Part shown: positions 5,954 through 63,455 of the stretch, in pieces | How the letters are laid out: each line of letters begins with the position of its first letter | Position numbering within the stretch: position 1 is the first letter of the stretch | NCBI GenBank assembly: GCA_965263355.1 | Contig: CBDHHL010000032.1 | Span: 2,656,001-2,720,000 of the forward strand | Origin: Leptolyngbyaceae cyanobacterium | Lineage (GTDB): Bacteria > Cyanobacteriota > Cyanobacteriia > Phormidesmidales > Phormidesmidaceae | Length of the DNA: 64,000 nucleotides | Reading direction: 5' to 3' | Translations under genes and position numbers: made by a program | The notes under the pieces: model-generated | The model's database searches: none | Seen by the model: only the letters and a program-made list of their open reading frames with translations | Told to the model about the DNA's origin: nothing

Positions 5954-5999
5954 TAACCACAATAGGTATACACCATTATTAAATCATTCCGACCTGACG

Positions 6000-6494: not shown

Positions 6495-6495
6495 T

Positions 6496-6855: not shown

Positions 6856-6922
6856 CGCCTCTCTCATAGATATTGTTAACGCCGCTCGGCGAGTCTTGGC
6901 ATTTGAGCTAGAGCCGTTCTAG
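6842..6922 (+). pseudogene. Truncated HepT/DUF86 toxin N-terminus
   Basis: Overlaps the MntA stop as usual for this pair; translates MNRDNASLIDIVNAARRVLAFELEPF then stops. Confidence 0.6.
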
Positions 6923-7463: not shown

Positions 7464-7528
7464 AGATCATTATCTAAAGCCTCAGTAAATCCCGACAATT
7501 CGATTCTTGCAAGGCTAGATAATATCCT

Positions 7529-8095
7529 ATGGTTCAGCTCAAACCAAGATTTCAAACATTTGAAGACTACCTCGCCTACGATAACGGCAGCGATACGCTG
7601 TATGAGCTATTTAATGGAGAATTAATTGAACTACCAACAGAATCAGGGTTCAACGTTGAAATCGCCACACTTTTACTCACCCTGTTTATCGCTAAGGTCG
7701 GCTATCAAAGCGTTCGGGGCCATGGTCTAGAGCTAGAAGTGCACGGAGAGCCCAGAAACCGATACCCCGACTTAACTGTCATTCGCGAAGAACACATCGA
7801 CCAGCTAAAGCAACGAAATACCATTCGACTATCCATGGCCCCTCCACTATTAGTCGTTGAGGTCGTTAGCCCTGGAGCACTGCAGCGCGATCGCGACTAT
7901 ATTGCCAAGCGCCACCAGTATGAAGCAATTGATATCCCTGAATACTGGATTGTAAACCCCCAGGAGAAAACAATCCTGGTATTGGAACTGATGGACGGTT
8001 CCTACATTGAGAAAAGCCTGTTTAGTGGAAGCGATGTTATCTCATCATCTAATTTCGGTGACCTGTCGTTAACAGTTAAGGAAGTGTTGCCTTAA
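7529..8095 (+). CDS. Uma2 family endonuclease
   Basis: [21 protein letters not shown]...RDYIAKR..Y...IPEYWIV. Confidence 0.93.
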
Positions 8096-31972: not shown

Positions 31973-34900
31973 TTAATCTATGTCCTTTGGTAAGTTAGGA
32001 CATGTTTGATCATAATCTTCACCTCCAAAGAACTGTTTCCATTCTTGAGTCGTGAGATTACGGGTTAATCGCTTACAGGTTTCTTCAATTAAATCGTCAA
32101 TCACAAATGACAGAACTTGAGCCGTATTGCCACTTTGGGTTAACACTTTGCTGCCATCAGGACTCAAGTTGACACTATCTACCACATCATTATGGGGAAT
32201 GCGCGCAATCTCCAATATTTGCTGCCGTTCCCATGCTTCGACTGCCTGGTTAGGATCCCATTCTTCGGCTGCCGTTAAATCCCAGACTCTTGCTGTTTTA
32301 TCTATACTGGCAGTGGCTAAATAATGGCCATCATTACCAAGGCTTACATCCGTCACCTCATCATCATGAACAATGGGGCTTAACTCTTCGCCTTTTTTGA
32401 AATCCCAGACCCTTGCCGTTTTATCTGAGCTTCCAGTCACCAGGTAACGACTATCGTTACTAAAGTCTACATCATTAACCTCTCCCTCATGGACAATGCG
32501 AAGAGCTTCCTGATTTTTCTTCAGGTTCCATACTCGGGCAATATTATCCTTGCTTGCGGTGGCTAGATAGATACCATCATTACTAAAGCTTATATCTGTA
32601 ACTTTTCCCTCATGAATAATATTAGCCACTTCCTTATTTTTCTCAATGTCCCATACTCTTGCAATATTGTCCTTGCTGCTAGTCGCAACATAACGACCAT
32701 TGTTGCTAAGTCTTATATCAACAACGTCTGAATCAAGAGTGATGCTAGAAATCTCCCTTTCTTTCTGCCAATCCCAGATTCTTACGATATTATCTGAGCT
32801 ACTGGTAGCAAGATAGCGGTTATCCTGACTAAATGTCACATTGCTTACCGGTTGTTTATGGTTAAGCTGAATGACTTGTTTGTCCTGTAAGTTCAAAATT
32901 CTAGCGATATTATCGCGACTGGCAGTTGCCAAATAAAGATTATTCGAACTGAAGTCCACGTCCTCAACATCATTGCCATGGATAATGCGAGTAATCTCCT
33001 GATTATTTTCCAGATCCCACACCCTTGTCGTATCGTCATTACTGCCAGTAGCGATATAACGACCATCTGGGCTAAAGCTTACGTCCTCTAGTTGCCCATT
33101 GTGGACAATGCTTGCCACCTGCGGTTGCGATCGCAAATCCCATACCCTCGCCGTATTATCCAGACTTCCTGTCGCAATATAACGACCATCAGCGCTAAAG
33201 CTAACATCGATAATGGCCTGTTCATGCGTGATCCGGGCAACCTCCTGATTGTTGACCAAGTCCCAGACTTTTGCCATCTTGTCACTACTGCCAGTGGCCA
33301 GATAGCGACCATCGGGACTAAAGCTAAAGTCCTCCACATTTCCTGTATGGGCAATGCGGGCCGCTTCTTTATTCTTTTGGAGGTCCCAAACCCGCATACT
33401 TTTAGTATCATCACTGCGGGTCGCAAGGTAACGATTGTTGGGACCAAACTTAAGGTCTAGGATCTTATTATCATGAACAATGCTACCCACCTTTTTTCTC
33501 TGTTTCAAATCCCAAATAATCGCCGTATTATCTTGGCCGATTGTCGCCAGGTAGAGACCATCAGCGCTAAAGCTAGCCCCTTCTACCGACCCCCGATGGC
33601 TAATGCTTTCACGATTATTTTGTAGATCCCACACCCTAAAAGTATCGTTAGTCTTACGGTTAGCAACATAGGGGCTATTGGGACTAAATCGAATGTCTGC
33701 CACATTACCCACATGGCTAATTACGGAATGACGACTCTCTGTCAGGGCCTGCACCCTGATTTCTCTATTATTGATGCGATAGGCAAAAAAACGATCATTC
33801 GGACTGAACCGCACATCGTAAGCAGCCCCCTGATATGTAATACTACGCTGTGATTGTTTGTTATTTAAGTTCCATAGGGTCACTTTATTGCCCCGGCTCA
33901 AGATGGCAAGATACTGGTTATTGGGGCTAAAGATAATCTTTTCAACATTTTCAAACACTTCGATCTGTTGCTTATTCTGCAAATCCCAAAGTGTCGCATT
34001 CTTACTCTCACTGAGAGTAGCCAGATATCGACCATTGGGGCTAAAACTCAGTTCTTTCAAATTCTCCGCAGGATTAAAGTATTTGGTTTCTTGGCTGACC
34101 TGAAGGTCCCACAATACTGGGCCATTATCACGACTACGGCTAACAAAATAGTTGCTTTCACTGTTAACAGCGGGACTAAAGCTTATTTCTTCAGCATTAT
34201 GGCTTTGGAGTAACCTATTTTCCTGCAAGTCCCATAACATTGCGCTATTGTCATTACTGCGGGTAGCCAGATAGCGCCCACCAGGACTAAAGATAATCTC
34301 TTCAGCCGCTCCCTCATGGTTGATAACAGACGTTTGAGGCGGCAACAATGGTAAACTCTTGTATAACTCATGGCTGGCCTCGCCAGTCGAGGCTTGGTTA
34401 GCTTCCAATCCCTTCATAGCAGCCGTTGTCAACAGAATTCCCTTATCTAAGTCTTGTTGCTTAAACTGTCTAGAGCGGTTAATTACCTGCTGATATTTTG
34501 CTACAGCCGTCAGTTTCAAAACTTCGCCTGTAGCAGCTTCTGCCCTTTGCCGAGCAGCCTCTGCGTCGCGACGAGCACTCTCTGCCCTACCATACAGGTA
34601 AAATGCTAAACTTCCAGCGCCAACAGCCAGAAATAACAGAGTGCCTAATATGCCAATAATCACTCGTTGTCGAGCATTGGTTGCTCTGCGGGCGGCTACC
34701 GAAGCAGATACATACTCTATTTGAACCTGGGTAGGCTTAGGTTCCTTGCCAGCACTTGCCTGAATTAACCATTGTTCTGCCTCTTCTAGGGCACGTCCTC
34801 GCAGTAACAAGCTACTATCTCTATCACTTTTGTTCCACTCTATTGAACGGGTAAGGAGTGTAGTATGATCTTTCCAATACTCTAAATCAAGATCAATACT

Positions 34901-35275
34901 TTTTACGAGATTTTCAAAGTTAGCCTCAAGGTCATCCTTTTCTTGAAAATGGATCCAGTTTAATTTCTTTAATGCCGGATGCACATCTTTTGATCGCACA
35001 TCACGCCGTATAATGGGGATTAACCGTTTGTTGTGTTTGACAGCATGGTCAATTTCTTTCCGACATACTCTAGAGGCAACTGAGTCGGGGCTCAAAATAA
35101 AGACAAAGGTATGGGCCGCCTCAATTCCAGATTCTATCTCTTGCCACCAGTCCGCTGTCGGTGGAATATTTTGCCAATCTACCCAGGTGTCATACTTGCT
35201 CTGGGCTAATGCATCATCAAGAATGCGGACAAATTCTGTATCTTTTCGAGAGTAAGAGATGAATAAGTCAGCCAT
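31973..35275 (-). CDS. TIR domain - TM - WD40 repeat protein
   Basis: DLFISYSRKD..WVDW..LSPDSV.S.VC..E; one TM; many H...V.DVSFS.DG.YLAT.S.D.TARVWD repeats. Confidence 0.95.
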   Translation of the reverse strand: MADLFISYSRKDTEFVRILDDALAQSKYDTWVDWQNIPPTADWWQEIESGIEAAHTFVFILSPDSVASRVCRKEIDHAVKHNKRLIPIIRRDVRSKDVHPALKKLNWIHFQEKDDLEANFENLVKSIDLDLEYWKDHTTLLTRSIEWNKSDRDSSLLLRGRALEEAEQWLIQASAGKEPKPTQVQIEYVSASVAARRATNARQRVIIGILGTLLFLAVGAGSLAFYLYGRAESARRDAEAARQRAEAATGEVLKLTAVAKYQQVINRSRQFKQQDLDKGILLTTAAMKGLEANQASTGEASHELYKSLPLLPPQTSVINHEGAAEEIIFSPGGRYLATRSNDNSAMLWDLQENRLLQSHNAEEISFSPAVNSESNYFVSRSRDNGPVLWDLQVSQETKYFNPAENLKELSFSPNGRYLATLSESKNATLWDLQNKQQIEVFENVEKIIFSPNNQYLAILSRGNKVTLWNLNNKQSQRSITYQGAAYDVRFSPNDRFFAYRINNREIRVQALTESRHSVISHVGNVADIRFSPNSPYVANRKTNDTFRVWDLQNNRESISHRGSVEGASFSADGLYLATIGQDNTAIIWDLKQRKKVGSIVHDNKILDLKFGPNNRYLATRSDDTKSMRVWDLQKNKEAARIAHTGNVEDFSFSPDGRYLATGSSDKMAKVWDLVNNQEVARITHEQAIIDVSFSADGRYIATGSLDNTARVWDLRSQPQVASIVHNGQLEDVSFSPDGRYIATGSNDDTTRVWDLENNQEITRIIHGNDVEDVDFSSNNLYLATASRDNIARILNLQDKQVIQLNHKQPVSNVTFSQDNRYLATSSSDNIVRIWDWQKEREISSITLDSDVVDIRLSNNGRYVATSSKDNIARVWDIEKNKEVANIIHEGKVTDISFSNDGIYLATASKDNIARVWNLKKNQEALRIVHEGEVNDVDFSNDSRYLVTGSSDKTARVWDFKKGEELSPIVHDDEVTDVSLGNDGHYLATASIDKTARVWDLTAAEEWDPNQAVEAWERQQILEIARIPHNDVVDSVNLSPDGSKVLTQSGNTAQVLSFVIDDLIEETCKRLTRNLTTQEWKQFFGGEDYDQTCPNLPKDID

Positions 35276-38878: not shown

Positions 38879-39303
38879 GGTTCCGTGCAGTGGGAGGGCT
38901 CCCCTGGGCAGCAGGATCTAGGGGAGCCCTCCCTCCCTTGGCGAAAAACGCCACATGATAGCCCCTCACTAATGCTAGGCGAGAGCGCAGCCCCCCCGAT
39001 TGGTCCAGGCAGGATATGGCCAAAATAATTGGTAGATTCCATGGCAGACACACTAACCATCTTGATCGATCTCACCAACGCTGATGCTGTTGACCGTACG
39101 CCCTCCCAACAGAGAAACGCCATCGCGTAAAATCACTTAATTTTTTTTGCGTACTAACACTCGCTTTAACTTATTCGGCAATTTGCTCTATTTCCACACC
39201 TGAACTTCACACACGAAATCCACAATTTCCTGGGTGATTTTGCAGTTATTCATTGCCTTAATAGAACCAGGCAAGCGATTAGATTCAGTGAGTCTAGTGA
39301 TTA

Positions 39304-39447
39304 CACGACTTGGAAGGTTATCACGAAAGAAAATTTGAAACGGCGCAACCACGTTCAGCGATAGCAAAAATCTGATGATTTCGATTTTTCAGAACCATTG
39401 AAAATAAAGGCTTTTATTTTTCTCTGCTCGTAACCTTCCAAGTCGTG
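39304..39447. mobile_element. MITE, 144 bp, with empty site preserved in the duplicate unit
   Basis: Perfect 17-bp TIR CACGACTTGGAAGGTTA / TAACCTTCCAAGTCGTG; TGATTA on both sides; single TGATTA at 40275-40280. Confidence 0.92.
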
Positions 39448-39550
39448 TGATTAAGTTATTGCTTGAAGCAATAATGTGTTGCCTAACGTTCGTTCGCTAG
39501 CCCATTAGGGACATACATTCATTTTTCCGTCACTTATCAGGTTTTCTTCC

Positions 39551-39724
39551 ATGCGTAACAACCAAGTAAAATCTCAGCCACAAGCCGCAGTTCGGATTAC
39601 ACAAACTACCTCCCAGCCCCTCTGGCAGTCCTTGACCAATGCCCAGCAGGAAGTGACTAAAGGTGGATATCGTAGTCGCGGCGGCCTTGGACGCATTGAC
39701 ATTTTGGGTGGTTTTCCATGGTGA
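39551..39724 (+). CDS. Double-glycine-leader peptide precursor 1 (57 aa)
   Basis: MRNNQVKSQPQAAVRITQTTSQPLWQSLTNAQQEVTKGG|YRSRGGLGRIDILGGFPW. Confidence 0.8.
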   Translation: MRNNQVKSQPQAAVRITQTTSQPLWQSLTNAQQEVTKGGYRSRGGLGRIDILGGFPW

Positions 39725-39941
39725 TAGTGCATTAGAGGTAAGGATACGAATAGGAGGCCAATAGGGATTTAGGCATAGATATCTTTACCCTTTAAGGACT
39801 ACCGAAGTTTGTTTTCAGGTATGCGGCGATAATTAAGCACAGGTCTGAACCGTTGAGATGTTTACCTGGTGGTTTGTGGGCTAATGGCGTTGGCCGCCTG
39901 CGCATACCCTCTATAGGTCGTGTAGTTACCCAGCAGCATTA

Positions 39942-39980
39942 CAGTAGCGGTTGTGTGGACTTTCCACACGACCGCTACTG
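39942..39980 (+). other. 17-bp stem hairpin in the conserved downstream element (copy 1)
   Basis: CAGTAGCGGTTGTGTGG-ACTTT-CCACACGACCGCTACTG with one G-U pair, followed by TTTGTT. Confidence 0.75.
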
Positions 39981-40378
39981 TTTGTTAGTCCATGGTTTAG
40001 CCAGGGCACGTCGAGCAAAAGTAGAAGAATATTCATCAGAATGGGTGAATTGGCAGATGTTCAGCGTTGACCGTACGCCCTCCCAACAGAGAAACGCCAT
40101 CGCGTAAAATCACTTAATTTTTTTTGCGTACTAACACTCGCTTTAACTTATTCGGCAATTTGCTCTATTTCCACACCTGAACTTCACACACGAAATCCAC
40201 AATTTCCTGGGTGATTTTGCAGTTATTCATTGCCTTAATAGAACCAGGCAAGCGATTAGATTCAGTGAGTCTAGTGATTAAGTTATTGCCTAAGGCAGTA
40301 ATGCATTGCCCAACAGTTCGTTTGCTAGTCCTTTAGGGACATACATTCATTTTTCCGTCACTTATCAGGTTTTCTTCC

Positions 40379-40543
40379 ATGCGTAACAACCAAGTAAAAT
40401 CTCAGCCACAAACCACCGTTCAGACTACAGAAACAACTTCCCAGCCCCTCTGGCAGCCCCTGAGCAATGCTCAGCAGGAAGTTACTAAGGGTGGGTATCG
40501 TGGCCATGGCCGCCGTCCCTCCCCTCTACGTCCCGGTGGTTAA
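40379..40543 (+). CDS. Double-glycine-leader peptide precursor 2 (54 aa)
   Basis: MRNNQVKSQPQTTVQTTETTSQPLWQPLSNAQQEVTKGG|YRGHGRRPSPLRPGG. Confidence 0.8.
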   Translation: MRNNQVKSQPQTTVQTTETTSQPLWQPLSNAQQEVTKGGYRGHGRRPSPLRPGG

Positions 40544-40594
40544 GTAACCTGCTGCATACGTCCATTCCTCTGTACATTTACCAGGTTTTCTTCC

Positions 40595-40765
40595 ATGGGG
40601 AAAAATCAAACAAAATATCAGCCACAAGTCGCAGCTCAGATTACACAAACTACCTCCCAGCCCCTCTGGCAGCCCCTGAGTAATGCTCAGCAAGAAGCAG
40701 CCACTAAAGGTGGATACCGTAGCCGTGTTTTCGGAGCTGGTGCACGCATTACAAGCTGGTTTTAA
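40595..40765 (+). CDS. Double-glycine-leader peptide precursor 3 (56 aa)
   Basis: MGKNQTKYQPQVAAQITQTTSQPLWQPLSNAQQEAATKGG|YRSRVFGAGARITSWF. Confidence 0.8.
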   Translation: MGKNQTKYQPQVAAQITQTTSQPLWQPLSNAQQEAATKGGYRSRVFGAGARITSWF

Positions 40766-40888
40766 GGTATACGACGGTAATTAAACACAGGTCTGCATCG
40801 TCGAGATGCTTACCTGATGGTTTGTGGGCTAATGGCGTGGCCACCTGCGTATACCCTCTATGGATCGTGTAGTTACCTAGCCGCAGTG

Positions 40889-40927
40889 CAGTAGCGGTCG
40901 TGTGGACTTTCCACACGACCGCTACTG
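40889..40927 (+). other. 17-bp perfect stem hairpin in the conserved downstream element (copy 2)
   Basis: CAGTAGCGGTCGTGTGG-ACTTT-CCACACGACCGCTACTG. Confidence 0.75.
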
Positions 40928-40998
40928 TCTGTTAGTCCATGGTTTAGCCAGGGCACGTTGAGCCAAAGTATTTGCTTAACTATTAAGCTTGATAGATC

Positions 40999-43713
40999 AT
41001 GTCATTCTGCCAAACATATACTGCGTGGAGGGCGTACCTAGGTTGTCTGGTTATAATGGCGATAGCTACACCAGGCTACGCTCAAGTCAGCCAGGTCATA
41101 GGCGATGGCACCGTCAATACATTGGTCAATGGAAACCTTTCCACTGCCTGCGCCAGTGGGCTCTGTACCGTTACCGGCGGTACCCAGGTTAATGACAGCC
41201 TCTTCCACAGTTTTGATCAATTTTCACTCCAGACAGGTGATGAGGCTCGGTTTGACAATACCGGTATCGACACCATTTTTAGTCGGGTAACTGGCGGGGG
41301 TTCATTCATTGATGGCATCATCAGCACCACCGCCACCACACCCACGGATATTTTTCTTCTCAATCCCCAGGGTGTTCTTTTTGGTGCCAATGCCACCCTG
41401 AATATCAATGGTTCTTTTTTTACCAGCACCGCCGATAGTATCGTTTTTGATAACGGCGCTACATTTAGCGCTAGCGCCCCCACTCAGCTAGGCGGTCTCT
41501 TAAGCATTAGCACCCCCATCGGCCTACAGTACGGCACCAATCCAGGGGCCATTGACATCCAGGGACCTGGACACCAGCTTCAGTTATTTCCCTCGCTTGA
41601 ATTTGATCGGACGAATCGCCCGGACGGCCTCAGACTAAACAGTGGCGAAACCCTGGCTCTTTTTGGGGGTCCCATTATCTTTAATGGAGGCAACGTGACT
41701 GTCGCTGGCGGGCATGTGGAACTGGCCAGTGCCGACAGCAACAGTTTCATTGGCCTGACAAAACCATCGGGTAATTGGGAATTTGACTATACCCAGGCGA
41801 GTTTGCAAGATATTGCCCTCGCTAATGCCAGCTCTATTGATGTGAGTGCAGTGGATGGGGGCTCGATTGGTGTGCGGGCAGACGCTCTATCCCTGGTAGA
41901 TGGCTCTGTGATGGTGGCCAATTTGCTGGGAACCGGTACCGGGGGAGGCATCACCGTTGAAACTGAGAGTCTTTTAGTGCGCGATCGCAGCGGCGATGTC
42001 AAAAGTGGTCTCTACAGCGATGTGGAGTTTCTGGCTACTGGCCAGGGCGGTCCCCTCGACATACAGACCCAACAGTTGACTGTTCTCAATGCCGGTGAAC
42101 TCTCCGCCAATACCTACTGGGACGGCAGCGCAGGCAACGTTACGGTAAACGCCAATGCCATCACCATGACCGGGGACAGTTTTATCGTTTCATTTGGTGA
42201 TTTTTTTGCATCAGGCAATACGGGCGATGTCACTGTGACGGCCAACACCATTGACTTGAGGGATGGGGCCCAGATTGCCACCACAAACTTTGGTGCCGGT
42301 AATACCGGTGTTATGCGAGTCAGTGCAGACCAATTATTTTTTCAAGGGGTGGGAGCCGATGGCTTCACCCAAAGTGGATTAGAGTCTTTCGGAGAGATCA
42401 GCAACGGTGGCACCATTCTTGTCAATGCCGAGACTATTCAGCTAGTCGATGGTGGTTTTATATCAGCCAGTACTGTTGGGAGCGCATCTGGCGGAGATAT
42501 CACCGTTAGTGCCAATAGCTTAGAAGCCACCGGAGGAACACTTGATGGTAGTCCCAGCGGTGTTTTCAGCACCGTATTTCCAGATGCTACTGGAGATGGC
42601 GGTAGTCTGTTCCTGCTGGTTGACCAGCTGAGCCTGGCTGATGGTGCAGGTATTAATGTGAGCACCTTTGGTGATGGGAATGCAGGCAACTTGGCTATTC
42701 GCTCTCAAACAATCGATCTGGCGGGTGTGGCGTTCAATGGACGTACAGCCATAGGTTCTAACGCCATTCTGGGAACTGGGGACGGCGGCAATATTGACAT
42801 TCAAGCCGACCAGGTTAATATTCGCGACGGTGCAACAGTTACCGTTGGTAATTTTCAAACCCTAGGTGTTTTATCTCCAGGCCAGGGGGCTCCTGGCAAC
42901 ATCACCATTGCGGCCAATGGGCTGGCCTTGAATAACGACGCCACGATTGTTGCTGATACCTTTTCGGCTGACAACAGCCTCGGTAATATTGTGCTGGATT
43001 TGGACACCCTCACCCTGCAGCAGGGCAGTCGCATTAGCACCAACGCCCAGGGCAGCTCCACCGGGGGCAACATCACAATCAATGCCATCGCGCTAGTTGC
43101 CAGGGAGAATAGCGATATTTCTGCCAATGCGCAGCAAGGTATCGGCGGTCGGATTGTGGTTAATGCCAATCAGATTCTGGGGACCGAATTTCGTCCTCGA
43201 CTTACCCCAGAAAGTGACATTACCGCCAGTTCCGATCTGGGTCCCAGCTTTGGCGGCACTGTTGAACTCAACACCTCTTACATAGAACCTATCCAGGGTA
43301 TCGCCACCCTACCAACCGATACGGTAGACAGAGAGCAACAGGTAGCCCGTCAATGCTCTGCTGAGGTTAATTCCCTTGTGATTAGCGGTCAGGGTGGCCT
43401 TGCAAAAGACCCGACCCAACCCCTGCAAGGAAACACTATTTGGAATGATTTACGACTAACTCTTTCAGCACCATTATCCCGGAACCACACGTTACCAGAA
43501 TCAATTTTGACTGGTGAAATGTACGGCGGTGATATGGCTGACACCGAACATCACTTGCAAGCTCAGCCCCGTATCTCCCCAGGGAGTAATCTTGTAGAGG
43601 CACAGGCAGTCGATATCGAAAACGGCCAGGTTCGACTCCTCGCAATGTCGCCTGTGGCAGCAAATTTGCTAAATCCGGAAACATGTAGCGTCGCACCATC
43701 TACAACAACTTAA
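40999..43713 (+). CDS. Filamentous hemagglutinin N-terminal (TPS) domain beta-helical exoprotein
   Basis: Signal peptide; LFHSFDQF, IFSRVTGG..S.IDG, FLLNPQG.LFG.NA.L; G/N-rich repeats; NSDISANA..G.GG, SDITASS. Confidence 0.92.
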   Translation: MSFCQTYTAWRAYLGCLVIMAIATPGYAQVSQVIGDGTVNTLVNGNLSTACASGLCTVTGGTQVNDSLFHSFDQFSLQTGDEARFDNTGIDTIFSRVTGGGSFIDGIISTTATTPTDIFLLNPQGVLFGANATLNINGSFFTSTADSIVFDNGATFSASAPTQLGGLLSISTPIGLQYGTNPGAIDIQGPGHQLQLFPSLEFDRTNRPDGLRLNSGETLALFGGPIIFNGGNVTVAGGHVELASADSNSFIGLTKPSGNWEFDYTQASLQDIALANASSIDVSAVDGGSIGVRADALSLVDGSVMVANLLGTGTGGGITVETESLLVRDRSGDVKSGLYSDVEFLATGQGGPLDIQTQQLTVLNAGELSANTYWDGSAGNVTVNANAITMTGDSFIVSFGDFFASGNTGDVTVTANTIDLRDGAQIATTNFGAGNTGVMRVSADQLFFQGVGADGFTQSGLESFGEISNGGTILVNAETIQLVDGGFISASTVGSASGGDITVSANSLEATGGTLDGSPSGVFSTVFPDATGDGGSLFLLVDQLSLADGAGINVSTFGDGNAGNLAIRSQTIDLAGVAFNGRTAIGSNAILGTGDGGNIDIQADQVNIRDGATVTVGNFQTLGVLSPGQGAPGNITIAANGLALNNDATIVADTFSADNSLGNIVLDLDTLTLQQGSRISTNAQGSSTGGNITINAIALVARENSDISANAQQGIGGRIVVNANQILGTEFRPRLTPESDITASSDLGPSFGGTVELNTSYIEPIQGIATLPTDTVDREQQVARQCSAEVNSLVISGQGGLAKDPTQPLQGNTIWNDLRLTLSAPLSRNHTLPESILTGEMYGGDMADTEHHLQAQPRISPGSNLVEAQAVDIENGQVRLLAMSPVAANLLNPETCSVAPSTTT

Positions 43714-44225: not shown

Positions 44226-44984
44226 CTACCGCACCATTGCCTCAAACTTCTCTTCCCATTTCTCATGATTTAACTTTGCCTCCTGAACAATCGACGACGA
44301 AGTAATCATCCTGTTAACCGCCCAATTCAATAAAGAAACCGGAAAATTCAACGGGCGAGCAATATCTAAAAACAAAACCACACGATAACTATCCGTGTTG
44401 TTCCACACCTCATGATAAAAAGTGTCATCAAAGATCAAACTTTTCCCTTCTTCCCAATAAGCAGTTTGACCATCCACCTGAATCCAACATTTCTCTTTCG
44501 GCTCCGGCACAATCAAACCAAGGTGATAGCGAATCACCCCCTTATGCTTGCCCCGATGTTTTGGAATATGTTTACCAGGGGCCAGAATCGAAAAAAATGC
44601 AACCTTAAGCCCTGGAATTTCCTTTAGTAGCTGAGTTGTCTTAGGACAACGCTCACAATTTTTAGTCGCCTCAAAGCCAAAGGCACAAAAGAAGTAAGTT
44701 TTCCAGAGATTGTCATTACTAATCTTGTACTGTCGTTTAGAAATATCCTGGAAGTTCGGCAACTCATCAACAGATTCCATGACCTGCTCTAGTTCCTGGC
44801 GAATCACTGACCAGTTTGTTTCCAACTTAGACACCCAGGGGAATTGGGACTGATCAAAAAAAACAGTATCCCCCACTTTAGACTGTTGAGCAATTAAATT
44901 CTCTAACCAGCCCGTTTTAATAACTAGCTGTTCTAGCTTTTTGACGGTGAAATTAACAACGTTATTCGTTAGTGAATTGGTCAT
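44226..44984 (-). CDS. Aspartyl/asparaginyl beta-hydroxylase (LpxO-like 2OG-Fe dioxygenase)
   Basis: AFFSILAPGKHIPKHRG..KGVIRYHLGL, FDDTFYHEVWN, RVVLFLD. Confidence 0.92.
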   Translation of the reverse strand: MTNSLTNNVVNFTVKKLEQLVIKTGWLENLIAQQSKVGDTVFFDQSQFPWVSKLETNWSVIRQELEQVMESVDELPNFQDISKRQYKISNDNLWKTYFFCAFGFEATKNCERCPKTTQLLKEIPGLKVAFFSILAPGKHIPKHRGKHKGVIRYHLGLIVPEPKEKCWIQVDGQTAYWEEGKSLIFDDTFYHEVWNNTDSYRVVLFLDIARPLNFPVSLLNWAVNRMITSSSIVQEAKLNHEKWEEKFEAMVR

Positions 44985-45031
44985 GATAGCGGCAGTGATC
45001 AAATTGCTCCAGAGCAAAGGTATTTATACAA

Positions 45032-45104
45032 TAAACCACGTCCAAGGTGAAACCTGCGGATGCTTCACCAGAAAAACCACCATTCTGGCCGTGGGCAAGG
45101 GGTA
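45032..45104 (-). mobile_element. 73-bp element family R3
   Basis: TAAACCACGTCC...GGCCGTGGGCAAGGGGTA; homologous to 49527-49599 and 52588-52660. Confidence 0.75.
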
Positions 45105-45107
45105 AGC

Positions 45108-46796
45108 CTAGGGTTCAGCGTAAGTCAAATGCTGAATGACTTCGACATCCTTGAGCAGGGTGCGATCGCTACTAATGTGCGCTAACTTTGCCATGGACAC
45201 ATCATTGGCACCCTGGCTTACTTTCCGTTGACGTAAGCCTGCAAAGCTCCCCGATTTCAGGACATTTAGTGCAGGTGGGGCAATATCTTTTCTGGCCCGT
45301 TGCCCCCCATAATTAGCATTGGCCTCCTGTAGACGCTGGTCAAAGTCAGTCAGTAACTGCTGCGGATTTGTCAAGGCCTCATGGAGGGGTAACTCGATAT
45401 TCAATATATAGTATGGAGCAATAATATTATCCGAAAGCGTAATGCAAAACCCTTCCAGGTTCAGGGCATAGGCCGCTTGCAGCGCAGTCATCACTTGAAT
45501 CGCATGATATTCCGTAGTTTTCTCAGTAATGGCCGATAATGTGCCGCCTTGCCGATACCGAAATACAACGAGAGGAACGGTTTCATAAAAACCCACTACC
45601 TCAATCACATCGCCGATATTGTAACGGTAAAACCCTGAATAGTTGGTGATTAACAGCTGATAAAACCCACCCACTTTAACCTCATGGGGCAAGAGCGTCT
45701 TGGGACTAGTCGCATCCCACTGATCGGTGGGAATAAACTCAATAAAATTACTCTCGATGGCCAGGATTGTTCCATCTGTATTAAACTCATGATGAATGCC
45801 AATGACTGCTTCAGCAGCGGCATAGGTCCCCCCAAAAATGGGACAATCACCAAAGTACTCTGGAAATTTCTCAAAGTAAAAATCAGAGGGGCCTCCCCGA
45901 GCTGTGATTAATAGTTCTAAATGGGGCCACACCCGTTGGGGCCGCAGACAGCCATCAGATTTTAGAATATGTCGCAGTTGCTCAGCTCGTTTGGGAGCAG
46001 CGGTCAACATTCGTTGAAGGTTTGCCCGTCGCTCGGTTTCGATGGCAAGCCAGGCCGGAATTTCACCACAGGCTAAGGCTTTGATCAGGCAGTCTCCATA
46101 GGTTTCCAAATACACACCAAGCTGGAGTAGATGGATGGGAAATAGTCCAGAAATAATCCGTAAATTAGGATTCCGCAGGGCAAACAGCAGCGACAGGTAA
46201 TGACGCGCTAAGGTATCTGCCACTAGCAGCACTTCAAAGGGCTGCACATTGATCACTTGGGTGAGCCAATTCCGACTTGAGCGCTGATGATTACTACTGG
46301 TATGGCCATAGATAATGCCGCCACTGGTACGACCCTTGGGTTTTGCCGAAGCGGTGAAGAGCATTTGCCCCAGGGAAAATTTCTTACGCCGAGCCGCCGC
46401 TAGGAAAAAGCACGTTGCAATTTGATTGGCCTGGGCACGTTTTTGTTGCGATCGCACTGTAATGGGGATCAGTTTTTGTTTACCCGTTGAACCGCTGCTG
46501 AAATTAATATAGATAACCGGGTCAGGGCTAATCACATTAGTTTCCCCGGCGGCTACTCGCTCAAAGTAGTGCTCATAGTGGCCATAGGAGGACGGCGGAA
46601 CCTGGTTACGAAACTGGTCCACTGTGGTTATGGCGGTTAAGTTTAGCGACTGACCTAGCTTGGTTCCTTGATGGTCATGGATGAGGGATTGTAGAAATTT
46701 TTCCTGAATTGCAGTCATCTGATGTAGCTTGCGATTAAACGCTATCGTTTGCAAACGAGTCGCAGACTCCACCAAGGGCAATACAAGATTGATCAT
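45108..46796 (-). CDS. GH3 family acyl-adenylate-forming (acyl-amido synthetase-like) protein
   Basis: SSGSTGKQKLIP P-loop, YAAAEA.IG, FIEFIP, TNYSGFYRYNIGDVI. Confidence 0.92.
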   Translation of the reverse strand: MINLVLPLVESATRLQTIAFNRKLHQMTAIQEKFLQSLIHDHQGTKLGQSLNLTAITTVDQFRNQVPPSSYGHYEHYFERVAAGETNVISPDPVIYINFSSGSTGKQKLIPITVRSQQKRAQANQIATCFFLAAARRKKFSLGQMLFTASAKPKGRTSGGIIYGHTSSNHQRSSRNWLTQVINVQPFEVLLVADTLARHYLSLLFALRNPNLRIISGLFPIHLLQLGVYLETYGDCLIKALACGEIPAWLAIETERRANLQRMLTAAPKRAEQLRHILKSDGCLRPQRVWPHLELLITARGGPSDFYFEKFPEYFGDCPIFGGTYAAAEAVIGIHHEFNTDGTILAIESNFIEFIPTDQWDATSPKTLLPHEVKVGGFYQLLITNYSGFYRYNIGDVIEVVGFYETVPLVVFRYRQGGTLSAITEKTTEYHAIQVMTALQAAYALNLEGFCITLSDNIIAPYYILNIELPLHEALTNPQQLLTDFDQRLQEANANYGGQRARKDIAPPALNVLKSGSFAGLRQRKVSQGANDVSMAKLAHISSDRTLLKDVEVIQHLTYAEP

Positions 46797-57452: not shown

Positions 57453-58586
57453 AGGCTTAACTATCTAGGAACTAACCCACTTCCGTCATCATAGTCTGTA
57501 TGCAATTCAGTAATATCCAGCATAAAGGAATTCAATACATCACACGTATTGTGGTAAAAGTATTTTCCATGAGATTCGATTCAGCTCAAATTGTCATTAG
57601 TAGTATCTTGTTCAAATAACAGCCACATCAAGATTCAATCAAATTTGTTCTTATTTTCCTGGTTGTTTACTCTGACTAGAATAGGGGCAATTTTTGGAGC
57701 TGCCACTTTATATCAGCTAACAAACAAATTTTGTCCATTTTGAGAAAATGCCCCTCAGCGAAGGGGGCTCAATAACAGTCTTATTTGATTAGGCACTTGA
57801 TTCTTAGGAAAATCAGCAAACAGAGATGTCCATAATGCTTCAAAAACTTTAGTCGGCTAAGATCGCTTTCTTTCACGTCATCAACTTTTTTGAGTGCATA
57901 ACAGTTTTTTTATGGTTGTGTTAAGAGTCAATAAGTCTTTTATTAAAAAGCCGTCCTTTTCTGATCTGTTCGTCTTACCTCTTGAATAAAGTGAAATCCT
58001 CTAACTCTTTTGGTATTTCATAAACTAATGGTAAAGGCATATAAAGGTTCAATCAGATTTGTTCTTATTTTTCTGACTTTGTTATTGTAAACTTGACTTA
58101 AAGTTTTTGATTGGTGACTTTACCTATAGAGAATCTACCTTGATACTGACTACAGAGCTTCTAAAGCTGTATGGTATGTCTACCTTTGATAGTTAGCATC
58201 AGAAGCAGAGCATGAGAAAAAGTTGAGATGCTTTTTTCTGTAGCACAACTATCAGGTCTCAGGTTTGCTAGAAATACCGAGGCAATTAATCTAGTTAGCC
58301 CCCCAAACAGATGCCGGGTTACTTGCAAACCCAAATATCATTCTCAACTCCAGCTTTGCACCCCAAGTTAATCGATTGGGTGTTGCTGCTTTTCGCAAGC
58401 GTAAGCAAGCGTCGGAAGTCGAGGCTTAACCTTAGGGAACCTCGTCAGGTTTCCTAATAGTTTGCTTCACCAAAAGCCGGGAAGAGTCTATTAAAAGCGA
58501 CTTTTAATATCAATTTGTTGCCTGGGCTGCATCATAAAATTCATCATTTTTCATCGTCAGAGCAATACATAATAGAGGGCTTATCC

Positions 58587-61500
58587 ATGCTACAAGATCA
58601 GTTTCAGGACGTTACTGAATCAAGTTTTCCTAAACTTCTAAAGAGAAACGATAATCCGGTCTGGGACGAGTGGGAAGATACAGATGGTGATGGTCTTGTT
58701 GATAGGCAGCCCAGCTATGGTGTGGCTTGGGGTGACGCCAATGGCGATGGATATGCTGATCTGTACTTAAATAATCACTTTGGCGATCGTAATGGCCCAC
58801 CGCCTTCGCTGTATATAAACCAGCAAGACGGTACCTTTGTAAATCGACTAGACCTATTTCCAGCTGATGATCGTGGAGATATTGTTAGGGGCGATCGCCA
58901 TGGCAATATTTGGGCTGATTTTGATAATGATGGTGATCAAGATTTAATTCAGTTAGTAGGGCTGAACTCAGATTCAGAACCCAGTAGAAATAAGCTTTTT
59001 ATCAACGAAATAAACGAAGGCGGTATTTTTGTTGATAAAGGCGTTGACTTTGGCATCACCTATCCTGAGTCCCGAGCCCGTGAAGCAACTGTATTTGATT
59101 TTAACAATGACGGATTGTTGGATTTCATTCACGGGTCCCTAACCGATGGCACGAAAAATCCTGAGTTACCAGCAACGGTTTTCCAGCAAAATCCAGATGG
59201 CACATTTTCAGATGTTGGTGCGGCAGTTGATTTCGAATTTGACCGCAGCTATGGGGTTGAGTACGTCGCCCTAGCAGACTTTACGGGAGATGGGCGTCTG
59301 GACGTTTTCCAGAAACAACCTAATGACGTCTATGACATTACCTCTGGCAAGTTCGTCAAAATCACCGACTCGTTATTTGACGGTGTTACCCTGCAAAACG
59401 GTAGGGGATTGGTCGATATGGCCATTGCCGACTTCAATGGAGATTTAAAGCCTGATATATTTCTGCCTAGTTCCGGTGGCAATGGTCATCAATTGGTATT
59501 GAGTTCCCCAACTGGTTGGGAAGATAAGTCTGTTGAGTCTGGGGTACGCTCAGTTTCCTATCGGACAACGGATGGCGGCGGTGTGGTTACAGGTGATTTT
59601 GACAACGACGGGGATGTGGACCTGTTTGCCCTTGACCGTAATGGTGGTCCTGATTTTATTTTTGAAAATCAGGGGGATGGGACATTTACAGCCAATGCTT
59701 TTTCAGATACCACCCCATTGCCGGGTGTACCGCGACCCGATTTACGCACGGTGGCAGTGGCAGACTATAACAATGATGGCTTTTTAGATCTACTGGAAAC
59801 GACCCATAGAAACGACCCTACGTATCGCTTGTTGCAGAATAAAGGCAATAGCAATAACTGGCTCTCGATTGATCTAGAAGGGACGGAATCCAATCGTGAC
59901 GGTATTGGAGCAACGGTTTACGTGACAGCTGGTGGTGTCACTCAAATGAGGCAACAGACTAACGGACAACACCACAGGGCACAGGATCACAAACGTATTC
60001 ATTTTGGTTTGGGTGATCAAAGCACAATCAGTGAGATTCGAATTAAGTGGCCCAGCGGAATCGAGCAAGTACTAACTGGAGTGACTGTTAATCAAATTCT
60101 TCAAGTTGTTGAGGCAGAGAGTCAATTCGAGGCAATTGATGATTCTGCCATCACCTCCCTGGATACAGCCATCGATATTCAGGTTTTGGCTAATGATGCC
60201 ATTACCCCAGAAACTGTATTCACCTTATCTGCCGATGGAGCCAGTAACGGTAGCGTTGCAGTTAACGATAATAGTACGCCAGCTGATAGCAGCGATGATT
60301 TCATTACCTATACCCCTAATGCAAATTTTGCAGGGACCGATGCATTTACCTATGAAATCAACAACAGCGAGGGCGGCACGGATACGGCGACCGTTAATGT
60401 CACAGTTCTCAACGGGAATCTACCTGTAGCAACAGATGACAGTGGAACAGTTGCAGAAGACTCACAGATCACCCTGGATGTGCTGTCGAATGACACCGAT
60501 GCAGACAACGATATCTTGAGCCTTGAATCTGTACTCTCCAGTAGCAATGGTAACACTAGTATTGATGGCAACCAGGTGGTTTATACCCCCAATGCCAACT
60601 TCAATGGAACTGACAACTTTAGCTACACCGTAACCGATGGTAATGGGGGCTCTGCGACTGCCACAGTAACTATCGAGGTAACAAGTGTCAACGATGCACC
60701 GGTAGCCAATAGTGATACGGTCACCACAGAGCAAAATACAGCTGTTCAAGTGCAGGTGCTTGCTAATGATACAGATGTTGATGGGGATACCCTGACGGTC
60801 GTATCTGCTAGTGGGGCCAGTGAAGGCACTGTAGAGATTCAAAACAATCAGATTCTCTATACCCCTAATACTGATTTTCTAGGCACTGATTCCTTTACCT
60901 ATGACGTCAGTGACGGCAATGGCGGTACGAATACCGCTACTGTCAATGTCAACATCACTGAACCAAGTATTCGCGTTGAAGAAGGACTCCTGAGTCTATA
61001 CACCTTTAATGAAGGGAGTGGCAACACCGTCTTCGATGTCTCGGGTGTTGGCGATCCCTTAAATCTAGAAATCGACACGACCACTGGCGTCACCGGGGGA
61101 GAAGGGTCCCAAATTACCTGTTCCTGCGGCAGCTGCCAGACTTGTAACTCTCAAGTATCCTGGGGAGATGGCACCCTAAATGTCAGTTCCCACAGCCTGA
61201 TTGGCTCTAATAAAGTGGGCACCAAGCTAATCGATGGTATTCAGGAGACTCAAGAGATTACCATTGAAGCCTGGATCAAAACCAATAGCCTCACACAAAG
61301 CGGACCTGCCAGAATTGTTACCCTCTCTGCCGATGCTGGCAACCGAAACTTTACCCTGGGGCAGGATGGAGACGACTACGAGGTCCGTTTGCGCACCACT
61401 ACTACTGGCAACAATGGTTTTGGCAAAACCGTCACCTCCACTGGATCACAAGTACAGACAGAATTCAGCCATGTTGTCTACTCCCGCGATAATACGGGGT

Positions 61501-63455
61501 TTGCCAGCCTTTACGTAAACAATCAGTTAGTTGGCTCCAACACCATTGATGGAGACTTCTCTAATTGGAACGCTGGGTACCAGTTTGCCTTAGCTAATGA
61601 GCTAGATAGTACCCGACACTGGCTGGGCAGCTATGACCTGGTGGCCATTTACAACCAAGCTTTTGATGCTAGCGAAGTGGAACAGAACTATCTGGCAGGG
61701 GCATCGTTTGGTGATATCCCTACTAATGCTCTTCCTGTCGCAGTAAATGACAGTGGAACTGTTGAAGAAGACTCCCAGCTGACCCTCAATGTGTTGGCCA
61801 ATGACAGTGATGCCGATAATGATAACTTGACCCTGGTGTCAGTATTGCCCGGTAACAATGGCACAACGTCTATTGAAGGGGGGCAGATTGTCTACACACC
61901 AACGGCCAACTTTAGCGGCACTGACAGTTTTGACTATACGGTCTCCGATGGCCAAGGGGGCACTGACACAGCGACCGTAACCATTACGGTGAATAGTGTT
62001 AATGATGACCCTGTGGCTGTGGATGATACAGCGACCACAGACCAAGACTCTAGTCTGCTAGTGCCGGTGTTGTCTAATGACAGCGATGTTGAGGGTGATA
62101 CTCTAACGGTGTTGTCTGCCACTGCAGGAAGTGCTGGCAGCACCGCCATTGAGAACAACCAGATTCGCTATACTCCTGACGCTGGGTTTGTCGGTGACGA
62201 CTCGTTTAGCTACACGGTGGAAGATGGTAACGGCGGTAGTGCGACAGCCACCGTCAATATCACGGTGACTGAATCCACTTCGTCGCCTGGAAATACCGCC
62301 CCTGTGGCTGTCAATGACAGCAGTACGCTGCAGGAAGACTCCCAGCTAACACTCAATGTGTTGGCTAATGACAGTGATGCCGATGATGATAGCTTAAGCC
62401 TTGTGTCAGTATTGCCCGGTAACAATGGCACAACCTCTATTGAAGGTGATCAGGTCGTCTACACGCCAACAGCCAACTTTAGCGGCACTGACAGTTTTGA
62501 CTATACGGTCTCCGATGGCCAAGGGGGCACTGACACAGCGACCGTAACAATTACAGTGAATAATGTTAATGATGACCCTGTGGCTGTGGATGATACGGCG
62601 ACCACAGACCAAGACTCTAGTCTGTTGGTGCCGGTGGTAGCTAATGACACCGATGTTGAGGGTGATACGTTAACGATAGTGTCTGCCACTGCAGGTAGTG
62701 CTGGCAGCACCGCCATTGAGAACAACCAGATTCGCTATACCCCTGACGCTGGTTTTGTCGGTGACGACTCGTTTAGCTATACCGTGGAAGATGGTAACGG
62801 CGGTACGGCTACAGCAACTGTCAATGTCACAGTGACTGATACGACGACTACAACAGGACGTGTGAACGAGGGTCTCTTGAGTCTGTATACCTTTGATGAG
62901 GGGCAGGGGAGTACCGTCTTTGATTTGTCCGGTGTGGGTGATCCGTTAAATCTTGAAATCGAGAATCTCAATGGTATTAGCTGGGGGAACGGCATTTTAG
63001 ATGTCACAGCCCCTAACCTAATCGCATCAAATCAAGCGGCGACTAAGCTGATTGATGGCATTACTGCTACCCAAGAGCTGACCATTGAAGCCTGGATTAC
63101 CCCAGATAATCTCTCCCAGCGTGGCCCAGCTCGGATTGCAACGCTCTCGTCAAATATTGGTAGTCGCAATGTCACCCTAGGTCAGGATAGAGATGAGTAC
63201 CAGACCCGTTTACGCACGACAACCACTGGTAACAATGGTGTTAACAAGTTAGTGACCTCGAGTGGTGATGCCGCAGATACAGCGTTAAGCCATGTGGTCT
63301 ACTCTCGTGATGCCAGTGGCCTCGCTAACCTGTATGTGGATAATCAGCTGGTGGGCACGAATACGATCGATGGTAATTTCTCCAACTGGGATAGTCAGTA
63401 TGAGTTTGCGCTAGCCAATGAACTCGACAGCAGGTCCCTGGTTGGGAAGCTATGA
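58587..63455 (+). CDS. Giant extracellular protein: FG-GAP (CRTAC1-like) + ASPIC/UnbV + cadherin-like/Ig repeats + LamG domains; true end uncertain
   Basis: DFDNDGDxD repeats; SNRDGIGA.V...HFGLG...I.WPSG; PVA.DD...VLANDxD.D.D.L...YTP..F.GTDSF.Y.VSDG.GG repeats; TIEAW..GPARI LamG. Confidence 0.9.
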   Translation: MLQDQFQDVTESSFPKLLKRNDNPVWDEWEDTDGDGLVDRQPSYGVAWGDANGDGYADLYLNNHFGDRNGPPPSLYINQQDGTFVNRLDLFPADDRGDIVRGDRHGNIWADFDNDGDQDLIQLVGLNSDSEPSRNKLFINEINEGGIFVDKGVDFGITYPESRAREATVFDFNNDGLLDFIHGSLTDGTKNPELPATVFQQNPDGTFSDVGAAVDFEFDRSYGVEYVALADFTGDGRLDVFQKQPNDVYDITSGKFVKITDSLFDGVTLQNGRGLVDMAIADFNGDLKPDIFLPSSGGNGHQLVLSSPTGWEDKSVESGVRSVSYRTTDGGGVVTGDFDNDGDVDLFALDRNGGPDFIFENQGDGTFTANAFSDTTPLPGVPRPDLRTVAVADYNNDGFLDLLETTHRNDPTYRLLQNKGNSNNWLSIDLEGTESNRDGIGATVYVTAGGVTQMRQQTNGQHHRAQDHKRIHFGLGDQSTISEIRIKWPSGIEQVLTGVTVNQILQVVEAESQFEAIDDSAITSLDTAIDIQVLANDAITPETVFTLSADGASNGSVAVNDNSTPADSSDDFITYTPNANFAGTDAFTYEINNSEGGTDTATVNVTVLNGNLPVATDDSGTVAEDSQITLDVLSNDTDADNDILSLESVLSSSNGNTSIDGNQVVYTPNANFNGTDNFSYTVTDGNGGSATATVTIEVTSVNDAPVANSDTVTTEQNTAVQVQVLANDTDVDGDTLTVVSASGASEGTVEIQNNQILYTPNTDFLGTDSFTYDVSDGNGGTNTATVNVNITEPSIRVEEGLLSLYTFNEGSGNTVFDVSGVGDPLNLEIDTTTGVTGGEGSQITCSCGSCQTCNSQVSWGDGTLNVSSHSLIGSNKVGTKLIDGIQETQEITIEAWIKTNSLTQSGPARIVTLSADAGNRNFTLGQDGDDYEVRLRTTTTGNNGFGKTVTSTGSQVQTEFSHVVYSRDNTGFASLYVNNQLVGSNTIDGDFSNWNAGYQFALANELDSTRHWLGSYDLVAIYNQAFDASEVEQNYLAGASFGDIPTNALPVAVNDSGTVEEDSQLTLNVLANDSDADNDNLTLVSVLPGNNGTTSIEGGQIVYTPTANFSGTDSFDYTVSDGQGGTDTATVTITVNSVNDDPVAVDDTATTDQDSSLLVPVLSNDSDVEGDTLTVLSATAGSAGSTAIENNQIRYTPDAGFVGDDSFSYTVEDGNGGSATATVNITVTESTSSPGNTAPVAVNDSSTLQEDSQLTLNVLANDSDADDDSLSLVSVLPGNNGTTSIEGDQVVYTPTANFSGTDSFDYTVSDGQGGTDTATVTITVNNVNDDPVAVDDTATTDQDSSLLVPVVANDTDVEGDTLTIVSATAGSAGSTAIENNQIRYTPDAGFVGDDSFSYTVEDGNGGTATATVNVTVTDTTTTTGRVNEGLLSLYTFDEGQGSTVFDLSGVGDPLNLEIENLNGISWGNGILDVTAPNLIASNQAATKLIDGITATQELTIEAWITPDNLSQRGPARIATLSSNIGSRNVTLGQDRDEYQTRLRTTTTGNNGVNKLVTSSGDAADTALSHVVYSRDASGLANLYVDNQLVGTNTIDGNFSNWDSQYEFALANELDSRSLVGKL

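Follow-up and report, generated by a model that had tools for sequence, protein, structure and literature searches.

Three putative double-glycine precursor genes in the window

Three small genes were found in a 64000 nt stretch of the genome of a Leptolyngbyaceae cyanobacterium (GenBank accession number CBDHHL010000032.1; positions 2656001 to 2720000), referred to here as the window. Comparison with homologues in related genomes indicates, with a probability of about 0.65, that they are paralogous precursors of ~55 amino acids (aa), which a C39-peptidase ATP-binding cassette (ABC) exporter and an HlyD-type partner would cut after a Gly-Gly (GG) pair, releasing cationic Arg/Gly/aromatic peptides of 15–18 aa outside the cell. 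The precursors belong to a family that is real, narrowly distributed and unannotated by any library tested, and that represents a kind of exported peptide already known. The conserved link between this family and a gene for an exoprotein of the two-partner secretion (TPS) type, located just downstream in the window, is new and well supported; it was absent from the annotation of the sequence that first described the three genes (the original prediction).

The genes are located on the forward strand at 39551–39724 (gene 1; 57 aa; hmmsearch E-value 6e-25), 40379–40543 (gene 2; 54 aa) and 40595–40765 (gene 3; 56 aa), confirming the positions and lengths (54–57 aa) originally given, and the same sequence, CAGGTTTTCTTCC, was again found immediately 5' of the ATG in all three. 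In gene 1, a leader of 39 aa ending in KGG (39551–39667) is followed by the core YRSRGGLGRIDILGGFPW (39668–39721) and a stop codon (39722–39724). The leader of gene 2 (40379–40495) precedes the core YRGHGRRPSPLRPGG (40496–40540; stop 40541–40543), and that of gene 3, which is one codon longer (40 aa; 40595–40714), precedes the core YRSRVFGAGARITSWF (40715–40762; stop 40763–40765). The common leader of 39–40 aa ends in SQPLWQ(S/P)L(T/S)NAQQE(V/AA)TKGG and is followed by YR, after which the cores are unlike one another, with few Ser or Thr residues and, as had been stated, no Cys. No fourth copy was detected in the window by six-frame hmmsearch.

The three genes sit in a segmental duplication of ~1 kb directly upstream of the TPS-domain gene, with genes 2 and 3 forming a tandem pair within the second duplicated unit, and their likeness is therefore due to paralogy and not chance. 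As the leader DNA shares 81–88% identity among the copies and the non-coding flanks share 89%, conservation within the window does little to show that the genes are coding. The pattern of substitution is more telling, as the ratio of non-synonymous to synonymous substitution (dN/dS) in the leader is 0.22, 0.35 and 0.24 in the annotated frame, and 0.50–2.12 for the same DNA in the other two frames. The leader is thus under purifying selection, in keeping with the protein-level selection argued earlier from synonymous differences at the leader ends and a single whole-codon indel; both were found as described, the indel (3 nt) being the only one among the leaders.

The cores carry several indels and ~3–4 times more non-synonymous change than the leader (pN of 0.30–0.48 and 0.07–0.13, respectively). 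The suggested comparison of dN/dS between leader and core therefore upheld the constraint on the leader, but permits no inference of positive selection on the cores, as synonymous change is saturated (pS of 0.64–0.76) and only 12–13 codons could be aligned. Logan contigs assembled from three DNA runs (two samples of one study) match the window with zero within-gene differences wherever the genes are unique, and cover those parts of each gene; a single contig covers 40066–40672, across genes 2 and 3.

Distribution and features of the peptide family

The window open reading frames (ORFs) were not recognised by Pfam, NCBIfam or Rfam. Such small genes are routinely missed: a word-indexed search of a library of 5.8 billion proteins returned nothing beyond the three window peptides themselves, and when 1.84 billion representatives were scanned all-against-all with HMMER, only two true relatives (P0006 and P0010) were added. 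The five longer HMMER matches were either low-complexity or repeat proteins (P0004, P0007 and P0009) or covered just 15–20 positions of the profile (P0005 and P0008), hence nothing points to the ORFs being pieces of a longer protein, a doubt that had accompanied the original prediction. A pattern scan of the genome contigs with a window peptide found no relative, and neither the family profile nor the TPS protein retrieved anything from the PDB sequences.

The key to the family was the location of the orthologue of the downstream TPS gene, followed by whole-genome profile searches. In Leptothoe kymatousa (genome G001; locus L001), the orthologous TPS gene has four homologous small ORFs directly upstream. 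Of 60 relatives of L. kymatousa, five carry the family, with nine copies in G001, 22–24 in G005, four in G021 and one each in G017 and G019. The peptides from these five genomes and the window make up a table of 41 members. One of these (L088 9443–9655; E-value 0.39) is plainly paralogous to the L090 peptide and was for this reason retained by hand. A further seven members, more distantly related and with Phe in place of Trp at position -15, were found in G145, G158, G174 and G196. Overall, the family is present in 9 of 172 genomes of the order, and 400 other genomes sampled across the phylum gave just two weak matches. In G198 and G325 the matches are weaker still and merge gradually with the usual GG-leader arrays of cyanobacteria. 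In G198, a distant cyanobacterium, L188 1399–3015 is an array of ~six small ORFs in tandem whose leaders are of the GG type (e.g. ..LWQTLSDAESESVSGG) and which match the family profile weakly.

The leader motif, numbered back from the predicted cleavage site, is L(-16) W(-15) x x [LIV](-12) [ST](-11) x x Q(-8) x E(-6) x x K G G. The GG boundary proposed for the window genes, which have GG in all three cases, is retained in the homologues, with Gly at -2 and at -1 in 40 of 41 peptides each (AG and GS are the exceptions). Leu at -16 (39/41) and Trp at -15 (40/41) are near-invariant, and -12 is occupied by Leu, Ile, Val or Met in 40/41 (28, 7, 4 and 1, respectively). Positions -11 (Ser or Thr; 36/41), -6 (Glu; 36/41) and -3 (Lys; 29/41) are also well conserved. 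Gln is found at -8 in 34/41 (Glu in 2/41), and -7 carries Gln in 17 and Ala in 14 of the 41 but Val, Ile, Leu, Met or Phe in none. Position -4 is Val, Ile, Leu, Met, Phe or Ala in 30/41 and Thr in 10/41, Thr being the residue in all three window genes.

The cores are hypervariable, 14–38 aa long (median 21) and rich in Gly, Arg, Tyr, Ser, Pro and Trp, with Asp and Glu making up 2.5% of residues; 38 of 41 carry a net positive charge and none a negative one. Paralogous cores are unrelated, whereas orthologous cores are kept between species, as in the last gene before the TPS gene (CCWLRWFYSQLYIRRG in G001 and CCWQRYWDAMLNYFRRG in G005), indicating that the cores are under constraint. In 18 of the 41 cores, none of them from the window, a single Cys occurs in an aromatic-C-x-x-T motif followed by basic residues (e.g. 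WCNRTGK). This Cys-core sub-family is found at L044 10455–12620, L078, L079, L083 and other G005 loci, and its members on G001 contig C12 and G005 contig C106 are divergent to TPS genes of a second, separate clade (~1040 aa).

Linkage to a single lineage of TPS genes

The TPS-domain gene (40999–43713, forward strand) begins 233 nt downstream of gene 3 and encodes a protein of 904 aa. Residues 53–286 match PF05860 (E-value 1.6e-39; 136.8 bits against a cut-off of 33.5 bits) and include the conserved NPQG, and the N-terminus has, by eye, a signal-peptide-like hydrophobic stretch ending in PGYAQ. The protein is like TpsA exoproteins in its TPS domain, NPQG motif and signal-like N-terminus, though no TpsB (ShlB/POTRA) gene was found in the window. 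The L. kymatousa orthologue at L001 is 72% identical. Genes for an Asp/Asn beta-hydroxylase and a GH3-family (acyl-adenylate amido-synthetase-like) protein at 44226–46796 (reverse strand) are convergent with the TPS gene; they were left out of the system because they are not kept at the orthologous loci of G001 and G005.

A total of 28 family loci were compared (one in the window, three in G001, 16 in G005, two in G145 and one each in G017, G019, G021, G158, G174 and G196). A TPS-domain gene abuts the peptides at 12 of these: the window, G001 C4 and C12, G005 C33, C106 and C46, G017, G019, G021, both G145 loci and G158. By a rough estimate, ~2–3% of random sites would be expected to fall within 2 kb of a TPS gene, the genomes carrying the family having 11–24 TPS matches each. 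A tree was built from 42 TPS domains, comprising all 16 from G001, 22 of 24 from G005 (two short fragments were excluded), the linked ones from G017, G019 and G021, and that of the window. The six TPS proteins whose genes follow the peptides (window, G001, G005, G021, G017 and G019) group together as a single clade (support 100/99). A second clade (100/99) unites the two proteins whose genes are placed divergently, and a TPS-CHAT protein falls elsewhere in the tree.

Among the 60 relatives, TPS orthologues with at least 53% identity are confined to the five genomes with the peptides, all of which have one, and are absent from the other 55, the next best match being 43%. No family member was detected near seven weaker TPS homologues (at most 43% identity) or near 31 other cyanobacterial TPS loci. 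From the neighbourhoods and the distribution of the TPS gene, it is therefore likely that the ancestral locus consisted of HlyD and C39-ABC genes, one or more divergent peptide genes and the TPS gene; only the peptide gene(s) and the TPS gene have been kept in the window, G001 C4 and G005 C33. The co-occurrence and adjacency with one TPS lineage suggests functional coupling of a type-1-secreted peptide and a two-partner-secreted protein. No literature linking GG-leader peptides or peptidase-containing ABC transporters (PCATs) with TPS/TpsA genes in cyanobacteria was found in a search confined to main texts in a library with few subscription journals.

Across the loci, 200–310 nt separate the last peptide gene from the TPS gene, and this spacer includes a predicted hairpin in the window (-41 kcal/mol compared with -19.7 ± 2.7 for shuffled sequences) and in L001 (-32 kcal/mol compared with -18.7). 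In the L077 and L092 spacers a hairpin is followed by a T-run, and the hairpin scan found nothing notable in the spacers of L093 and L094.

The strict co-occurrence and adjacency with one TPS lineage would also suit peptides that act as exported pheromone-like signals controlling the expression or activity of the TPS exoprotein, and not as antimicrobials. The same kind of transporter exports GG-leader pheromones, and a ComC cluster is among the look-alikes of the family in a protein atlas (score 0.80; at 0.80–0.84, all of these look-alikes fall under the 0.9 level and serve only as leads). According to PMC4997328, small GG-motif proteins of Synechococcus serve biofilm formation and not killing. 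However, no sensor kinase or response regulator recurs beside the loci, and the 24 copies at 16 loci in G005, which are mostly distant from TPS genes, exceed what a signalling circuit needs, while the cores are very diverse. A signalling role is thus considered unlikely.

Exporter genes near the family loci

For most G001 and G005 loci and those of G017 and G021, flanks of ~8 kb on each side were examined, or less at contig ends (6 kb at L001), and flanks of only ~3 kb were examined for G145, G158, G174 and G196. A C39-peptidase ABC exporter gene was found within ~5 kb of the peptides at 6 of the 28 loci. It lies divergently beside the peptides in G021 (L092 10228–12387), G017 (L093 9722–11950) and G019 (where it is truncated by the contig end), just downstream of them in G158, and 4–5 kb away in G005 C46 and C77. 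An HlyD-type gene follows or adjoins the exporter gene in G021, G017 and G005 C46, and was beside it at all four loci checked. The catalytic Cys (in Q..EDCGAAC) and the His of the HW pair are kept in all three C39 domains that were aligned (G021, G017 and G005 C46). The search for further copies and linked exporters that had been proposed was therefore productive (41 and seven members, with exporters at 6 of 28 loci), and the 41 homologues and the exporter linkage support the view that the window genes form a diversifying set of GG-leader precursors for a C39-ABC exporter, probably processed in trans.

A related arrangement was seen on G005 contig C49 (19998–30414), where 2 kb separate a TPS gene from a C39-ABC gene, with another C39-ABC gene 7 kb beyond. 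No member of the peptide family was detected in this region, and the TPS–PCAT neighbourhood may be broader than the family.

Several observations weigh against the reading of the window genes as expressed precursors of C39-exported peptides that act with the TPS protein. At 22 of the 28 loci there is no C39 gene within ~5 kb. None of the 40 window ORFs of at least 150 aa includes a C39 domain, as had been noted at the outset. In the nearest relative, L. kymatousa (a draft genome), the single Peptidase_C39 match (L046 5580–8567, reverse strand) is to a 995 aa ABC protein that has a cyclic-nucleotide-binding domain and adjoins an HlyD gene, and its C39-like domain is degenerate, with Ser at the position of the catalytic Cys and no His. 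A published survey of Leptothoe genomes likewise reports no bacteriocin cluster in this species, yet its genome carries nine family genes (PMC8225149). The leader has Gln at -8 and Gln or Ala at -7, unlike the classical PCAT motif given in PMC6363468. Neither a canonical Shine-Dalgarno sequence before the window ATGs nor, in a simple scan, a sigma-70-like promoter near the genes was found. Finally, adjacency of the peptide and TPS genes is no proof of joint function, and the hairpins in the spacers suggest that they may be transcribed separately.

The degenerate domain in L. kymatousa would fit a loss of C39 cleavage in this lineage, with the peptides exported uncleaved or by another route (e.g. 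the cyclic-nucleotide-binding ABC exporter with the degenerate C39-like domain) or persisting as relics. Consistent with this are the absence of both catalytic residues from the sole Peptidase_C39 match in G001 and the lack of a C39-ABC protein from the window's 3.9 Mb contig among the best 120 of 2064 matches. In addition, G017, G019 and G021 have a flanking C39-ABC/HlyD pair that is missing at the orthologous loci in the window, G001 and G005 C33. However, the leader including the GG pair is still under purifying selection in the window and in G001 with its nine copies, and G001 is a draft genome that was searched by a filtered scan. Loss of cleavage is accordingly ranked as improbable, below a signalling role. 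As L. kymatousa has kept nine family members alongside a degenerate C39 domain, either its exporter gene is missing from the draft or that species exports the peptides differently; it also carries another peptide with a textbook leader (L153).

The latter small gene is common to G001 (L153 1414–1590, reverse strand) and G005 (L154 1387–1647, forward strand), with the leader ..LSDEQLENVAGG followed by a repetitive acidic tail, and is conserved beside a gene for a protein of ~156–161 aa that is similar in the two genomes. ORFs of 992–994 aa, similar in length to the 995 aa ABC protein of L. kymatousa and with C39 matches as weak as its own, were seen in G005, G017, G019 and G021.

The ORFs might also be untranslated, having arisen by chance in non-coding DNA that was recently duplicated ahead of the TPS gene. 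In favour of this are the lack of a Shine-Dalgarno sequence, a recognised promoter and a listed RNA run, and a leader that is no better conserved within the window than its flanks. It is, however, very improbable, as 41 and seven ORFs across nine other genomes preserve the frame, its length and the LW...Q.E..KGG motif, and in relatives the ORFs are linked to a matching exporter. Moreover, dN/dS is clearly below 1 in the annotated frame (0.22–0.35) and higher in the others. Unlike the ORFs, the non-coding blocks around the genes (the 5' flank, the 3' block, the duplicated upstream block and an insertion described below) gave no DNA match among the homologous loci compared with them.

Relationship to known peptide systems

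According to PMC6363468, the recognition features of GG leaders are Glu at -8, Leu at -7, hydrophobic residues at -12 and -4, and the GG pair. The family resembles the substrates of double-glycine exporters and PCATs (ComC/ComA and LahA/LahT) in its GG end, Leu at -12 and variable C-terminal cargo, and in having several precursor genes per locus and some members located beside C39-ABC and HlyD genes; position -4 is hydrophobic in most members but Thr in the window genes. It differs from classical PCAT leaders in its conserved Glu at -6 and near-invariant Leu-Trp at -16/-15, and in that the window is without an exporter. The assignment of a C39-precursor layout to the window leader consequently holds for the GG pair, Leu at -12 and exporter linkage in relatives, but not for the Glu -8/Leu -7 pair, which is absent.

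Short precursors with GG sites near C39-peptidase transporters are widespread in cyanobacteria according to Wang, Fewer and Sivonen 2011 (PMC3140520). The family shares with those clusters the short precursors, the GG sites and, in relatives, the nearby C39 transporters, whereas the terms hemagglutinin, haemagglutinin and two-partner do not occur in the main text of that paper. In the passages of PMC4997328 on Synechococcus elongatus PCC 7942, the EbfG1–4 proteins, encoded by tandem, small and previously unannotated GG-motif genes like those described here, are secreted via a C39-peptidase transporter (PteB) and have an extracellular role that is not antibiotic. By description and not by sequence, mature EbfG (6–7 kDa) is larger than the cores found here (1.6–2 kDa), and those same passages make no mention of a TPS gene for the EbfG system.

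The small GG-leader peptides of the Caulobacter Cdz system are exported by a type-1 PCAT/HlyD route, stay on the cell surface and act on neighbouring cells. No TPS protein is known to take part in that system, which is a possible model, by analogy, for peptides that would work at the surface with a fibre protein.

A conserved leader with a hypervariable core in multi-copy arrays is also the typical layout of precursors of peptides that are ribosomally synthesised and then modified post-translationally (RiPPs), in which case the leader would mainly recruit a tailoring enzyme encoded elsewhere and the products would be modified. The single-Cys motif in 18 of the 41 cores is a possible modification site, a radical-SAM/SPASM gene is located 1.3 kb from one G005 locus (L086 6211–7293), and a type-A lantibiotic cluster is among the atlas look-alikes (0.83). 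On the other hand, no tailoring enzyme recurs in the neighbourhoods examined, no NCBIfam RiPP-leader model is matched at an E-value of 1 or below apart from weak CTB matches, and the window cores have no Cys and few Ser or Thr. Modified products therefore appear about as unlikely as signals. The original prediction pointed out that no known RiPP-modifying enzyme is recognisable in the window; across the neighbourhoods scanned, no tailoring enzyme, kinase or immunity-like gene recurs and no LanM/LanB-type gene was found. The radical-SAM/SPASM gene, upstream of two members on G005 C55, is the only tailoring-type enzyme gene near any locus.

Known peptide families were also considered. None of the 41 peptides reached the 32-bit cut-off of the CTB family bacteriocin model (NF038167); five matched at an E-value of 1 or below (best 0.0026), the likeness being faint and confined to leader positions 8–29 of the model (one listed match scored 13.4 bits), and no match above the cut-off was found in the five genomes searched. 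Models of NHLP, Nif11 and lanthipeptide leaders in the NCBIfam library matched none of the 41 at this threshold, and the five other NCBIfam matches were to single members at chance level (E-values 0.047–0.23), with none to a leader model. A scan of 10 peptides at an E-value of up to 10 gave one match of a G001 peptide to a class I lanthipeptide leader model (9.5 bits; E-value 1.1), which is noise. The PatS/PatX/HetN morphogen motif, RG[ST]GR, is present in none of the 41 cores.

Proposed mechanism and role

In the C39 export reading, the conserved leader (...LWQxL(S/T)xxQQExxKGG) would serve as the export tag for a C39-peptidase ABC exporter and its HlyD-type partner, which would be encoded in trans in the window organism and provide a type-1 secretion route. 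The leader helix would be bound through Leu at -12 and the residue at -4, and the invariant Leu -16/Trp -15 pair perhaps replaces the missing Leu at -7. Cleavage after the GG pair would then be followed by expulsion of the cationic core of 15–18 aa, which is presumed to be unmodified as no tailoring gene recurs nearby. The hairpin that separates the peptide genes from the TPS gene could let short precursor transcripts outnumber those reading through into the TPS gene.

The composition of the window cores (Arg, Gly and aromatic residues, with no acidic ones) suits membrane-active or surface-binding peptides. They may be bacteriocin-like or surface-active, and, given how strictly they are tied to one TPS lineage, they may take part in the same extracellular process as the downstream exoprotein. 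A more far-reaching proposal, put forward tentatively and thought doubtful though less so than a signalling role or modified products, is that the peptide array, the C39-ABC/HlyD exporter and the dedicated TPS lineage form a single undescribed extracellular system, with the peptides working physically with the beta-helical fibre. They might be loaded onto the TPS fibre or activated by it, in contact-dependent competition or adhesion, and the cores would set strain specificity. To our knowledge, double-glycine peptides are common in cyanobacteria and a function is known for almost none. The clean leader motif can be used for genome mining, and the short cationic cores are open to synthesis and assay.

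Duplicated unit and other features of the window

The duplication includes a non-coding upstream block of 215 nt, present at 39089–39303 and, with 100% identity, at 40066–40280 (both forward strand). A 3' block of ~219 nt follows gene 1 (39805–40023, forward strand) and is 89% identical to that after gene 3 (40753–40970, forward strand), which lies within the spacer before the TPS gene. Each 3' block has a strong hairpin, at 39941–39981 after gene 1 (19 bp, followed by TTTGTT and thus terminator-like; -39.2 kcal/mol, z -8.97) and at 40889–40928 after gene 3 (-42.4 kcal/mol, z -7.41). A structured RNA, suspected in the 3' block from apparent compensatory changes, was dropped because only the 19 bp hairpin stands above shuffled sequences; the first 126 nt fold no better than these (z +1.75 and -0.81). 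Rfam at gathering scores gave zero matches across the whole window.

The region upstream of gene 1 is split, relative to that of gene 2, by a 137 nt insertion (39304–39440) resembling a miniature inverted-repeat transposable element, with imperfect terminal inverted repeats at 39300–39333 and 39418–39451. In the source runs, contigs of this element have a depth of 87–100, compared with 9–43 for adjacent contigs, and end loosely at 39300, 39414 and 39448–39454, where they run into dissimilar sequence. The high depth and the several continuations into unrelated sequence indicate that the element is multi-copy in the genome. The Logan contig carrying the core of gene 1 and the 3' block (39599–40095) has about half the depth of the unique contigs beside it (9.2 against 17–21 in X1; 9.3 against 28–34 in X3), a hint, contig depth being a poor measure, that the extra duplicated unit may be carried by only part of the population.

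Elsewhere in the window, Uma2-family nuclease-like and DUF433 genes are located at 5366–8095 and an AIPR-family gene at 14787–16451 (forward strand). The AIPR family is linked to abortive infection, and this region may be a small patch rich in defence or toxin-antitoxin genes. A gene at 31973–35275 (reverse strand) encodes a protein of 1100 aa in which an N-terminal TIR domain precedes many WD40 repeats; certain proteins of immunity and cell death also have TIR domains. A predicted surface protein of 1646 aa with FG-GAP, bacterial cadherin-like, Big_9 and laminin-G-like domains is encoded at 58515–63455 (forward strand).

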